64,000 bases of DNA, from assembly GCA_965230635.1 (NCBI GenBank), contig CBDDLJ010000011.1, positions 26,441-90,440 on the forward strand. Reading direction: 5' to 3'. Made by a program: the position numbers. This document shows positions 33,001 to 39,000 of this stretch, piece after piece (within the stretch, counting starts at the first letter, position 1; each line of letters begins with the position of its first letter). Origin of the DNA: Gammaproteobacteria bacterium (GTDB lineage: Bacteria; Pseudomonadota; Gammaproteobacteria; UBA1113).

Positions 33001-36000
33001 TTAGTTTTTCCAAAAAATAATCATTAGTAAATATTATTGCCTATTATATTACGGGATCGTAGGTTGGCACAAAATTAGTTATATATTTCATTTTTTTAGA
33101 TTTTTTCATAAATAATGGCTAAGATAAATTATTAAAACGTCATCTAATTGTTACTATTTTATCATAAATCGGCTAAAAATAAGATTATATATGGACATGC
33201 CAGCACAAATGAATATCACTTTTTCTTAAAAAGTACATTTAGTGCACTATATGAGTTAATTTTTAAAATTTAGCATTAACTGATTGATATAACACAGTTT
33301 ATTAAAGGTTCTCTTAACTATTCTCAATTTTATGCTAGATCTTCTGGAGATAACAAAAATAGTATTAATTAAAATCTGATTTTTAAATGTTATCTAGCTC
33401 CTAGGCATTAATTCTGTCAAAAGCAAAATTGAAAGAGTTCATCTAACTGTGCCGCCCTTAATTTATAGCCCAACATTTAACCGCTCTTCGAAGTAAATGT
33501 CAAGTTGAGAAATGGTTTCGGCCCAAGCACGTACAGTGCATAGTCCATTTCTTTTTAAATCGAGTGTCAGCAAATTGTGCGGATATGTGTCATCAAGATG
33601 GGTTTCTATCTCATTTTCTAGAGTTGCCTCAATCGCGTTTTTTATCAAAGGGATCATGCAAGACCATCCTTGCTCTGTAGCGATTTCCCTGAACGGATTT
33701 ACCCCACTATTTTGGCCTGCAGTTGTTAAATATCCAGGGAATAAATAGTTAATTTTCCTTAATTCTGATAAGGTACTATTTTAAATAATATCTAATTGCA
33801 ATTTATACCAAATTGACACAGTTTCTGGAACACTCCAGCATAATTCTCTAATTAATCGCTTTTTGTTAGAGGCTAAATATATAATGTTAATTATACCAAT
33901 AACCACCACTATTGCTAATTTATAGTAATACCTTACTCATTGTATAACTCGTCTGATATTGCCGTGGCTTGTTTGCTCACTGCTCTTTTCAGTATGTTGT
34001 GAAGAAAAAAAACTCATTGCTGATTTAGAAAATAAACTCAATTTAGAAAAAATGCTGACTGAATTGTTAATATCTATTCTATAAGGCCGCAGATCTCGTT
34101 TGATTTTCTGAATAATAGACTGCGATAACGTTAATTGTTCTATTTGTCCTGCTTGTGCCACAACTACGGTGCCAGCTTGTTCATACACTAATACACAATG
34201 CTTTAATAATTGCTCCCTAATATATTGGCGACCCTTACCATGGGTTTTTTTATAGAGGGGGAGTAATAAATGCACTGGGATATGGACTTTATAAGAGATA
34301 TCATATCCATTACTGTCTTTAACAAATAAACTGTCTAGAAATTCCAGGGTTTTATTTGGCCACTTAGACAAGTACGCAGCAACACTTCTCGGGAAATCTT
34401 GGCGAACAATTCCTGCTACCTTATCATCCCAAAGGAATGCCCATATTGCCGTAACAAATTCGGGCGCTAATGAAAAATGTGAAGTAACGTCTATCGCAAG
34501 TTTAACACGAACATATTTATCCACCGTCTCATCCCTAAGGAACGCCAATATCGCATCAACAGATTTGGGGTATTGGTGTAAAAATATGCCCACACTTTCT
34601 GTAAGTCTGCAGCGAATATTACCATCTACATTCTCATCCCTAAGGAACGCCAACGCAGCATTAGCAGACTTCGGATATTGCCATAAAACCGAGCCTATGC
34701 TTGTCGCTAGACAGCAGCGAGAACCTTTACCTATTCTTTTATTCTGAAGCAATCTCAATACCACATCGAAAAATTTCGGAGATCGAGACAAAGGTGGCTC
34801 TATTCTATTTGCCAGCATGCTACGATAATACTCGTCCACCTTCTCACTCAGAAGTAACGCCAATATCGCATCCACAAATTCTGGGGTTTGTGACAAATGC
34901 ACAACCGCGTTTATGGCCAGTTCTATGCGAACATATCCATCCACTTGCTCATCCCGAAGTAACGCTAATACCGGATCCACACATTCTGGGGTTTGTGACA
35001 AATACGCACAAGCGCTGCTCGCAAGTTGGCAGCGAACATATGCAGTTACCGTCTTATCCCGAAGAAATGCCAATACCGCATCCACAAATTCTGGGGTTTG
35101 TGACAAATACGCACAAGCGCTGCTCGCAAGTTGGCAGCGAACATATGCAATTACCGTCTTATCCCGAAGAAATGCCAATACCGCATCCACAAATTCTGGG
35201 GTTTGTGACAAATACGCACAAGCGCTGCTCGCAAGTTGGCAGCGAACATATGCAATTACCGTCTTATCCCGAAGAAATGCCAATACCGCATCCACAAATT
35301 CTGGGGTTTGTGACAAATACGCACAAGCGCTGCTCGCAAGTTGGCAGCGAACATATGCAATTACCGTCTTATCCCGAAGAAATGCCAATACCGCACCCAC
35401 AAATTCTGGGGTTTGTGACAAATACATAACCGCGCTGCTCGCCAGATCGTGACGAACATACTTACTTACCATCTCATTCCGAAGAAACACCCATACCGCA
35501 TCCACCAACTCTGAGGTTTCTAACAAATACGGAGCCGCACTTTTCGCCAGCTCTCTGCGGACATAATTACTTACCATCTCATCTCGAAGAAACTCCCATA
35601 TCGCATACACCAATTCTGAGGTTGGTGACAAATGCAGAACCGCGCTTTTCGCTAGTTTGCCGCGAACATCTCTATCTACCTGCTCATCCCTAAGAAACGC
35701 CCATATCGCATTCACAAATTCTGGCATTTTTGACAAATGAGAAACGGCGCTGTTTGCCAGATCGATGCGAATATAACCACTTACCGTCTCATTCCAAAGT
35801 AACGCCCATATCGCATCTACAAACTTTTGATTTTGTGACAAATGTGCAACGACGTTTTTCGCCAGATTACAGCGAACATTTTCATCCACTTGTTCATCCC
35901 GAAGGAACGCCAATACCACATCCACAAATTCTGAGGTTTGTGACAAATGAGAAACGGCGCTGCTCGCTAGATCGACGCGAACAGAATACATTACTGTCTT

Positions 36001-39000
36001 ATCCTGAAGGAACGCCAATATCGCATCCACAACCCTTGGGGCTTGTGACAAATGCGTAACAGCATTTCTAGCCAGTTTACCACGAACAGGAGCCCATACA
36101 GTTTCATTCTTAAGTAACGCCAATACCGCATCCTCAAATTCTGGGGCTTGTGATAAATGCGCAACCGCGCTTATTGCCAGCCTGCTGCGAACATCTCCAT
36201 CCACTTGCTCATCCCGAAGGAACGCCAATACCGCATCCACAAATTCTGGTGTTTGTGACAAATGCGCAACGGTGATTCCCGCCAGCTCACCGCAAATATA
36301 ATCACTTACCGTCTTATTCCGAAGGAGCGCCCATACCGTACCGGCAGTAAAGCAAATGAGCTTAGGACATATGGACAAGGTACCTAAGGTACCTATTATA
36401 GTCCATGGTCTTAGCCGTTCGTTAAACCGCTTTATACGTTGTTTAACTGCCCGCAACAAGGTTTGCTGTTGTAAGCTCAGCGCATTTGTGTCGGTGCTAG
36501 AGAGCAAACTTGACTCCAAACAGCGCATCAACAAATCAAACTCAACAATACCAACCCAGTCTTTAGGGCCTGCTATTAAAATCGACAGAAAATCATCTAA
36601 TGCTGTCGGATATCGACTCAACAAACCAGCTACCGATGGCCATACTAAGGTGAAGTTGGGATGATATTTATACCTATGAATCACTTGCGTTAAGTGTGTT
36701 TTTTGCTCCTCTGTGCCTTCTCTCAACGTCACGGCTATCACATTTGCCGCTAAAAATTCTTGAAACGATAAATGGAGAAATTCATACCTCTGTTGTGCTC
36801 TTATTGCATGCCCGACTTGCTTCAATAAGCCTAATGCTTTCAACGCTGGCACATTGAGCTGCTTTAACCGATTCACCGATAATAATGTGGGGCTTTCATC
36901 ACTGTTTTGAACACCTTTTAACCAACTGATGGGTAATTGTGCGGTATCCTGCCGTAACCCTTCAAAAGCCCAACACCCTAATGTGTCCAATAAACAACGG
37001 ATACTAGAGACTTCTAATACCATCTCATCATCTAATAACTTATTTTCATCCAATTCACCTATTTTGGCGAGATAGCGACGGCACACATTCACCATCAGCG
37101 ACTCATACAAATTACTCACCGACATCTCACTCAGCAGTAGCGGCTTATCGTCTTGACAGATAGTTTTCCACCAGATTTTGAGTAAATATGCATTAATCGG
37201 GATATGCACTACCGCCCAAAGGTCTGGATTCTGTTTTATGTCTTTAATAAAATTATTGGTATGCTCAGTCGCGCCCAAATGCTTCTTAAAAAACGTCGGC
37301 ACATCCTCATCGGAAAAGCCTTGGATTTCCGCCAGCCCATCATGACTTAGCCATTGCTGTAAATTGCCTATCGCATAAGGCCTTGTTGTCACCAATTTCT
37401 TAAACGGCAAGTGAAACAGTTGGCCAAGTAAGCTGCGCCAATAATCGGTTTCAGGTATCGGTAACTCGTCCAATCCATCCAATAACAAGAGGCATTTGTT
37501 CGGTTTCTCTTGCAGCTTTGATAATAATTCCCGCGCACTACTCTCCGGTAAGCACAAATCTTTCCAGCAGGCGCGGTAGACTAAGTGCTCAATATCCCAA
37601 TGTTGATTATCTGGCATCAAATTCTCAGGAAGTAATTCTCGACATCGGACAATGATTACCGTCTCAAAACCTGACCACAACCCTTCTTTACCCTCGCCTT
37701 GTTTGAAAAGCGCCCACTGGTAAGCAATATAATTCATCAGGGTTGTCTTCCCTACACCTGCCGCCCCCGATACCACAACCGTATCGATAGATGGTAGTGA
37801 CTTGCTATTGGCATCTCGATAGGCTGAGGGTTGAAACAAATCACTCGGTGCAATAGTTTCTGTTTTACCGGCAAGTCTATCACGCGCTCGTAACGGTTTG
37901 TGAAAGAGCTTATCGTCATTGCTTTGCGTCACCTCACTTGTCTTGTCAGCTTTCACCACATGAAGATTGACAAAATAATCCGCTAGCGAAAAGTAATCCG
38001 TATCAAATAAGCACTTGTTCACAAAGTTTGTCTCAGTATAGTGGGCTGTTAATTGTGTTTGCAAGCGCTGCAGTAAATCAGAAAAAACAGGTTGCGTTTG
38101 AGGTAGCTGACTTTCAGTGTTATTAAAACTATCCTTAATCATTAGATTCACATTGACCTGCGCTTGCTCCGAAGCAGAATTATTTTTAATGGTAATGCAA
38201 GGTATGCCCGTTGGCGAGGTTTTTTCTCCGGCTAATTTTTTGGTTGATATTTCAGGTGTTTTATTAAAGGCTACTGATGACATATCTGAGGTGATTACAT
38301 TATCTGCTATCGGTTGTGTAGTAGAACGATTATCCATAAAACCTCCTGTTGCAATATAATCACAAAAATTGGCTAAACTGGTTTGTCACAACACTCCGAT
38401 ACTATAGTGTCTATATATATCAGTACCGCTCCTTTTTACTGGACAATACAGCAAAGGCAATAGCCTAACTGCCGTGCAAAAATGCAGCCAATTCTTCAAT
38501 ACATGCTAAGTTATCTAACTTCATGATCGTGTTTATTCTTCGATCGTGAAGGTTCTTCCTGCAGACTCATGCCATATTAGAAAAATTTCTCACTTTAAAT
38601 CGGCGTCATAATGAGTCAAAATGAAACTTTTTATTCAGTCAATCAATAGAAGCAAATCCATGAAGCATATTATTTTATTAGGCATTGATATTGCTTTAAG
38701 CTAAACCTCCTTACTAAATATTATCAATTATGAGTTTTTTTCCTTCTTTAACAGCTCAGTGTTATGTATCATCCGATACCATTCATAAAGTTTAGAAACA
38801 ACTGTCCTCAAATACGTGCTGTCAACGTTTATTTGGGCTATCGAATTTTACTCTTTTAGGATTGAATTCATCTGGATTATAGCAGCCCCCGACCCAACTT
38901 AGCGTTGATTCGTATTCTTCATCATCAGGGTCATTAATAATCTCTAAAAAGTTATAAAAACCAGGTGTACCTCCAACATCTTCAGGGGGGCAAGCACGTT

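Follow-up and report, generated by a model that had tools for sequence, protein, structure and literature searches.

Here, we describe P0001, a bacterial NLR-like protein encoded within a 64,000-nucleotide stretch of DNA (hereafter, the window; positions 26,441 to 90,440 of contig CBDDLJ010000011.1, GenBank assembly GCA_965230635.1) from an uncultured gammaproteobacterial lineage. The protein joins a conserved NACHT NTPase to a C-terminal solenoid of HEAT-like repeats, and it is one of some 45 full-length family members in a single genome, where fragments also occur. The size of this family, and the diversification of its repeats by tandem duplication and site-specific amino acid change, is the most informative fact that our analysis adds to an earlier, sequence-only reading of the same DNA. 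We tentatively postulate that P0001 is part of a large repertoire of NLR-like receptors specific to this bacterial lineage, with which a host-associated gammaproteobacterium would monitor the interior of its cells for phages or other intruders, and we place the likelihood of this somewhat below even. The genome comprises 2.41 Mb in 23 contigs and is about 93% complete, with the window corresponding to contig C11.

P0001 is a 1466-amino acid (aa) open reading frame (ORF) with an ATG start, located on the minus strand at 33937-38337 of the window. Both the ORF call and the positions of its Walker motifs agree with those given by the sequence-only reading. The NACHT family of Pfam (PF05729) covers residues 185-354 (E = 1.7e-20; 73.9 bits versus a cut-off of 26.7), and the NB-ARC, AAA, and nSTAND families gave only weak matches to the same region. 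Walker A (GAAGVGKTT, residues 191-199) and the NACHT-type Walker B (LLLLDGLDELP, residues 283-293, including LLLLDGLDE at 283-291) are intact and invariant across the paralogues, and both fit the patterns used here to delimit the NACHT clade, i.e., GxxGxGK[ST] for A and hhhhDGhDE for B. In addition, a model that AlphaFold computed for residues 1-680 from an alignment of 38 rows (mean predicted local distance difference test [pLDDT] of 72, predicted template-modelling score [pTM] of 0.71), was matched by Foldseek to the NACHT-HD1-WHD-HD2 modules of NLRP3, NLRC4, and NOD2, with E about 1e-14 over about 600 aligned columns. Collectively, the Walker motifs, the Pfam match, and the structural similarity to NLRs identify P0001 as a STAND NTPase of the NACHT clade and not a generic AAA+ protein, the alternative that the earlier reading had named as one that would refute it. 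The nucleotide-binding domain is followed in the model by a predicted HD1 and a winged-helix domain. The parts of P0001, all on the minus strand of the window, are as follows.

38083..38337, minus strand: disordered N-terminal tail, residues 1-85 (AlphaFold pLDDT, paralogue conservation, no Pfam domain)
37783..38082, minus strand: pre-NACHT region, residues 86-185, partly helical (AlphaFold model)
37276..37785, minus strand: NACHT NTPase domain, residues 185-354 (Pfam PF05729; Foldseek matches to NLRP3, NLRC4, and NOD2)
37741..37767, minus strand: Walker A P-loop GAAGVGKTT, residues 191-199 (motif invariant in paralogues)
37459..37491, minus strand: Walker B LLLLDGLDELP, residues 283-293 (motif comparison across paralogues)
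36355..37275, minus strand: HD1, winged-helix domain, and HD2, residues 355-661 (AlphaFold secondary structure; structural match to the NACHT module of NLRs)
34360..36354, minus strand: 19 HEAT-like 35-aa repeats, residues 662-1326, presumed sensor (repeat profile, tandem-repeat search, AlphaFold, Foldseek)
34990..35409, minus strand: four near-identical repeat units, residues 977-1116 (98-100% nucleotide identity)
33940..34359, minus strand: C-terminal region, residues 1327-1466, with a small beta-sheet and a disordered serine/threonine-rich tail (AlphaFold; paralogue conservation)

The NLR-like architecture that had been proposed for P0001 holds for both of its main parts, the STAND module being supported by sequence and structure and the C-terminal repeats forming, in the model, a HEAT-like solenoid. 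These repeats are as regular as had been claimed, and they number 19 units of 35 aa (18 full and 1 degenerate, residues 662-1326) instead of about 24. Tandem Repeats Finder (TRF) returned a 105-nucleotide period with scores of 1204-1444, and a repeat-unit hidden Markov model (HMM) matched the protein with E values of 1e-16 to 1e-23, far above chance. AlphaFold predicted residues 640-1466 as a regular helix-turn-helix (alpha-alpha) solenoid (pLDDT 80), in which helix A spans about positions 1-12 of each unit and helix B about positions 18-32. The top Foldseek matches of this model in the PDB were the HEAT proteins CAND1 (E = 1.8e-11), karyopherin-beta2/transportin, Kap121, and SF3B1, and Pfam yielded only weak importin/TNPO3 HEAT-like matches. 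Other weak Pfam matches in the repeat region (ELO, TetR_C, Bestrophin_2, NIL, and FliL, among others) were set aside as chance, because the composition of the repeats yields chance matches. The GC content of the repeat DNA is 43-45%, versus 38% for the genome.

Neither Pfam nor the structure model revealed an enzymatic effector domain in P0001, in line with what had been noted before. The N terminus itself differs from the earlier description, which held it to be about 100 aa of low-complexity sequence. Instead, residues 1-85 form a serine/threonine/asparagine-rich tail that is predicted to be disordered (AlphaFold pLDDT of about 25-30) and that matches no Pfam domain, and a partly structured stretch (residues 86-185) lies between this tail and the NACHT domain. 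The sequence of the tail is conserved in about 20 paralogues, for which the BLAST alignments start at residue 1, and we regard it as a candidate signalling or targeting element. The C-terminal end, in turn, carries a small beta-sheet near residue 1385 and a disordered serine/threonine-rich tail that is conserved across paralogues.

Further analysis revealed that the family is almost private to this genome. All homologues of P0001 at 46-69% identity lie on the genome's own contigs, apart from four proteins (P0021 [69%], P0027, P0035, and P0038) that come from the metagenome sample ERZ25074695; these sequences indicate that the sample harbours either this lineage or a relative of the organism. 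The gene for P0035 there adjoins a polyketide synthase. Scans of genome contigs found no relatives beyond this genome, and tblastn against plasmids returned only a weak Calothrix match. A quick IQ-TREE phylogeny of NACHT regions, the deeper branches of which are not resolved, placed 42 of the genome's paralogues and the four ERZ25074695 proteins in one clade with an SH-aLRT (Shimodaira-Hasegawa-like approximate likelihood ratio test) value of 99, which limits the expansion to this lineage and its relative in ERZ25074695. The nearest outside clade holds fungal NACHT-HEAT/ARM NLRs (Mortierellaceae, Xylariales, Metarhizium, and Penicillium) mixed with bacterial HEAT-NACHT proteins, one of them from Glomeribacter and others from a further bacterial genome, and coral NLRs fall elsewhere in the tree. 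This mixture hints at gene exchange between fungi and their endobacteria.

Within the genome, paralogues occur in tandem clusters on several contigs, and fragmentary copies are also present (e.g., at 149-153 kb of contig C23). In about 15 paralogues, ankyrin repeats lie in a long N-terminal extension (15 of the 20 extensions scanned). One paralogue, P0039 (contig C16, 64428-70001), is an 1857-aa protein that combines ankyrin repeats and NACHT with a second STAND NTPase (NB-ARC/nSTAND1), a Ulp1/CE-clan protease (RickCE match), and an OTU deubiquitinase.

The repeats vary among these proteins in number as well as in sequence. With the HMM built from P0001, 49 proteins yielded 745 repeat units, of which 314 are complete, and a paralogue holds between 2 and 24 units. 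Four consecutive units of P0001 (residues 977-1116; 140 aa in total, 105 bp each) share 98-100% of their nucleotides and 94-100% of their amino acids, a degree of identity from which we read this block as a recent tandem expansion. Near-identical unit pairs occur inside 8 proteins and only 2 such pairs were found between proteins, which suggests that duplication and conversion take place inside each gene.

Different parts of the proteins also appear to be under different selection. Among the 19 paralogues that share the tail, the ratio of nonsynonymous to synonymous substitution rates (dN/dS) is lowest in NACHT, at 0.24, which places this domain under purifying selection; the helical region has a value of 0.37 and the N-terminal region one of 0.54. 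For the repeat units, the Nei-Gojobori method (NG86) gave a dN/dS of about 1.0 over 9105 unit pairs. The most variable positions of the unit are 17, 18, 19, 22, 23, and 26 (entropy of 2.6-3.2 bits), along with 3 and 15, and positions 1, 11, 13, 21, 24, 25, and 35 are nearly fixed. A crude per-position proxy of dN/dS, in which single-nucleotide differences were normalised to synonymous and nonsynonymous sites and the unit pairs are not independent, exceeded 2 at positions 3, 8, 17, 19 (about 7), 22, 23, and 26 and was at most 0.25 at positions 2, 21, 24, 25, 27, 28, and 35. Positions 20 and 29 show nearly no synonymous change, which could be an artefact of codon usage.

Positions 19, 22, 23, and 26 have the i, i+3, i+4 spacing that puts them on one face of helix B. 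Since the B helices of HEAT solenoids generally line the concave surface, these variable positions plausibly form a putative binding surface, as mapped onto the unit by analogy with other HEAT proteins. Fungal NLRs offer a yardstick for such a pattern. Dyrka et al. 2014 (PMC4986451) define high internal conservation (HIC) in these proteins as >85% identity over at least 100 aa, and positive selection at particular positions together with repeat-length polymorphism marks nonself-recognition receptors in fungi (PMC4986451). Residues 977-1116 of P0001 lie within the HIC definition, comparable units occur in 8 paralogues, and the range of 2-24 units among paralogues constitutes the repeat-number polymorphism. 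The combination of a conserved NACHT domain with diversifying repeats is, at the level of sequence, the pattern of a diversifying receptor repertoire.

The domains, the structure matches, the copy number, the restriction of the clade, the tandem duplication of repeats, and the position-specific variability are all direct observations. Beyond these, and by analogy with NLRs, we infer that the HEAT-like solenoid of P0001 would bind a specific ligand and that binding would lift autoinhibition, leading to nucleotide-dependent oligomerisation of NACHT. For the P0001 subfamily, the output would most likely be the conserved, disordered N-terminal tail; oligomerisation would bring the tails together and let them recruit a downstream factor common to the subfamily. 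Other paralogues may act through their fused ankyrin or deubiquitinase domains. The repeats diversify by tandem duplication, concerted evolution, and amino acid change at fixed positions on one helix face, and, given this diversification, the family as a whole (some 45 copies) probably recognises many different molecules. Defence against phages or other intruders inside the bacterium is our best guess at their role. It seems to us rather doubtful that the family is either a diversified bacterial NLR repertoire on the scale of those of fungi and plants, with a partner in trans recruited by the tail, or a set of NLR mimics deployed into a eukaryotic host.

Several observations weigh against a defensive receptor repertoire. 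PADLOC detected no defence system in the window, except for a generic UvrD-family helicase that scored on GajB models, and such scores are typical of any UvrD helicase; its matches to the P0001 NTPase were weak only. A comparison of neighbourhoods in this genome found no gene family that recurs beside the about 45 paralogues, and a whole-genome search found the motifs of the N- and C-terminal tails in no protein outside the family. Together, these two results argue against an adjacent partner of the amyloid-signalling (BASS) type, for which an adjacent effector with a matching N-terminal motif would be expected and none was seen in this genome, and they leave the suggestion that an effector is supplied in trans without support. 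Given that P0001 has no effector domain, no recurring partner, and no shared motif, its signal output is pure inference. Two further points concern the repeats: the selection signal derives from the crude proxy and its nonindependent pairs, and the identical tandem units of P0001 could partly be an assembly artefact (collapse or expansion). Finally, the gene content of the genome counts on the same side. It is rich in eukaryote-like proteins, with about 40 ankyrin-repeat ORFs, which fit a host-directed role equally well. The window itself encodes a 1286-aa leucine-rich repeat (LRR) protein with a RickCE-like CE-clan protease domain (51517-55377, minus strand), a layout that typifies the effectors with which intracellular bacteria manipulate their hosts. 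At the end of contig C21 (177000-196786) lies a type IVA secretion cluster, VirB2-VirB3-VirB4-VirB5, which has an IS66 transposase and genes for ankyrin proteins and a BrkB-like protein on its flanks. From these signs, the bacterium probably lives with a eukaryotic host.

The same genes are the backbone of the view that the family consists of host-directed NLR mimics, that is, NACHT-HEAT proteins and ankyrin- or deubiquitinase-fused relatives that a symbiont or pathogen delivers into host cells, where they would scaffold or bind host proteins and alter signalling or death. Ankyrin, OTU, and Ulp1-type domains are classic in secreted effectors, and all of them are fused to paralogues of P0001. 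The same mix of NACHT-ankyrin and OTU/Ulp1 domains is found in the eukaryotic association module of Wolbachia phage WO (PMC5062602), and the closest non-bacterial relatives of the family are the fungal NACHT-HEAT NLRs, with the Glomeribacter protein in the same outside clade. However, no complete means of delivery was found: searches of the genome (about 93% complete, with the VirB cluster at a contig end) detected no VirD4 coupling protein and neither the FHIPEP protein of type III secretion and flagella nor the VipB protein of type VI secretion. In addition, the C-terminal tails of the paralogues are serine/threonine-rich and contain no E-block or arginine-rich translocation motif of the VirB/D4 type, and the strong purifying selection on the NTPase motifs fits signalling in the producing cell at least as well. 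The sequence-only reading had offered a scaffold delivered to a host cell as one of its two options; the ankyrin-rich genome, the deubiquitinase paralogues, and VirB2-B5 speak for it, no VirD4 or translocation signal was found, and we consider delivery unlikely.

The repeat pattern, taken by itself, could also reflect recognition between strains, in the manner of the heterokaryon-incompatibility NLRs of fungi: the repeats would detect allelic variants from competitors (e.g., during contact-dependent exchange) and trigger growth arrest. Conserved internal repeats, number polymorphism, and apparent positive selection at presumed surface positions do make up a signature like that of HET-D/E (PMC4986451), but no polymorphic partner locus was identified here. 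We know of no bacterial precedent for NLR-based allorecognition and hold this explanation to be improbable. Little probability attaches, likewise, to a selfish or degenerating expansion, in which duplication and gene conversion in an IS-rich genome that is starting to shrink would multiply copies of little function under relaxed constraint. Insertion sequence (IS) elements are indeed abundant near the family, fragment copies such as those on contig C23 exist, and the overall dN/dS of the repeats is about 1; yet the value of 0.24 for NACHT and its invariant motifs speak against such decay, and an amino acid excess at specific positions, with others strongly conserved, is not what relaxed constraint predicts.

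With respect to its surroundings, P0001 adjoins the genes for LpxK and MsbA, and the closest named homologues of this LpxK (about 50% identity) are from gammaproteobacteria (Kaarinaea lacus, Methylococcales, and Thioalkalispiraceae), which shows that the genome is bacterial and not fungal. The IS-rich context and the pRiA4b ORF3-like neighbour described earlier are both real. This gene (PF07929, E = 1.1e-56; 38822-39361, minus strand) precedes P0001 on the same strand at a distance of 485 bp. As the only one of its kind in the genome, it stands beside no other paralogue, so that its adjacency is incidental and the co-occurrence that had been proposed as a check was not observed. Transposases of the IS110, IS4-like, and YhgA-like types are located within about 5-20 kb of P0001, as identified by the window gene scan.

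43367-44956 and 50021-51091: IS110 transposases
55629-57002: IS4-like DDE transposase
57255-58235: YhgA-like transposase

Other genes of the window were recorded as well. An 869-aa PD-(D/E)XK (RecB-family) nuclease and a 1166-aa UvrD-family helicase, the latter with a strong PADLOC GajB score, are encoded at 14838-20835 (plus strand) and may represent either a repair pair like AddAB or a defence system. A cluster at 21074-29423 (plus strand) encodes a circularly permuted ATP-grasp protein, an Alpha-E protein, a GATase-transglutaminase, a DUF2126 amidoligase with transglutaminase, and an M15 peptidase. At 10408-11820 (plus strand) lies the gene for the sensor histidine kinase of a two-component system, which carries 2CSK_N as its periplasmic domain.

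If the paralogues are receptors, they would be the first large bacterial NLR repertoire with a diversified recognition surface. Such a repertoire would give experimental access to the origin of NLR ligand specificity through repeat shuffling and site-specific diversification, and it would provide a model for signalling by receptors without effectors, for example by way of a disordered tail and a partner in trans. If they are instead delivered into host cells, they would constitute a novel class of effectors that mimic NLRs.

In bacteria, NLR-like proteins are established anti-phage sensors, usually present in one or a few copies, each with its own effector domain. The anti-phage bNACHT proteins are tripartite, with a C-terminal repeat sensor for which HEAT is among the types, and number at most 23 paralogues per genome (Kibby et al., bioRxiv 10.1101/2022.07.19.500537). 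P0001 shares with them the central NACHT and the C-terminal repeat sensor, as well as the occurrence of many paralogues that is seen in some bacteria. In contrast, it has a disordered tail in place of an effector domain, the ankyrin and deubiquitinase fusions of its paralogues are not typical bNACHT effectors, and its family of about 45, against that maximum of 23, resides outside recognisable defence islands in a eukaryote-associated genome. With the fungal HET-D/HET-E and NWD NLRs (PMC4986451), P0001 has in common a NACHT domain, near-identical units within a gene, variable unit number, and position-specific amino acid excess, although the selection inferred here comes from a per-position proxy. 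It differs from them in being bacterial, in having a 35-aa HEAT-like unit rather than WD, ANK, or TPR repeats, and in having no HeLo- or HET-type N-terminal effector. The animal NLRs NLRP3, NLRC4, and NOD2 have a structurally equivalent NACHT-HD1-WHD-HD2 module and the same tripartite layout, but P0001 has a HEAT-like solenoid where they have LRRs and a disordered tail where they have PYD or CARD.

The ankyrin genes of Wolbachia and the phage WO module (PMC5062602) resemble this genome in their fusions of NACHT with ankyrin, OTU, and Ulp1-like deubiquitinases, in the large number of ankyrin proteins, and in the richness in mobile elements. The WO NACHT proteins are animal-like in sequence, whereas this family is nearest to bacterial proteins (ERZ25074695) and then to fungal ones, and, unlike in Wolbachia, no secretion signal or complete secretion system was found in this genome. 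The likeness to CAND1, karyopherin-beta2/transportin, and Kap121 is one of repeat fold only, as these are eukaryotic proteins without an NTPase. Separately, NACHT-HEAT proteins of bacteria and fungal NLRs whose repeats are highly conserved are already known; what is unusual here is their combination, i.e., a lineage-specific NACHT-HEAT expansion of some 45 members in a host-associated bacterium, with repeat diversification like that of fungal NLRs and a main subfamily without effectors.

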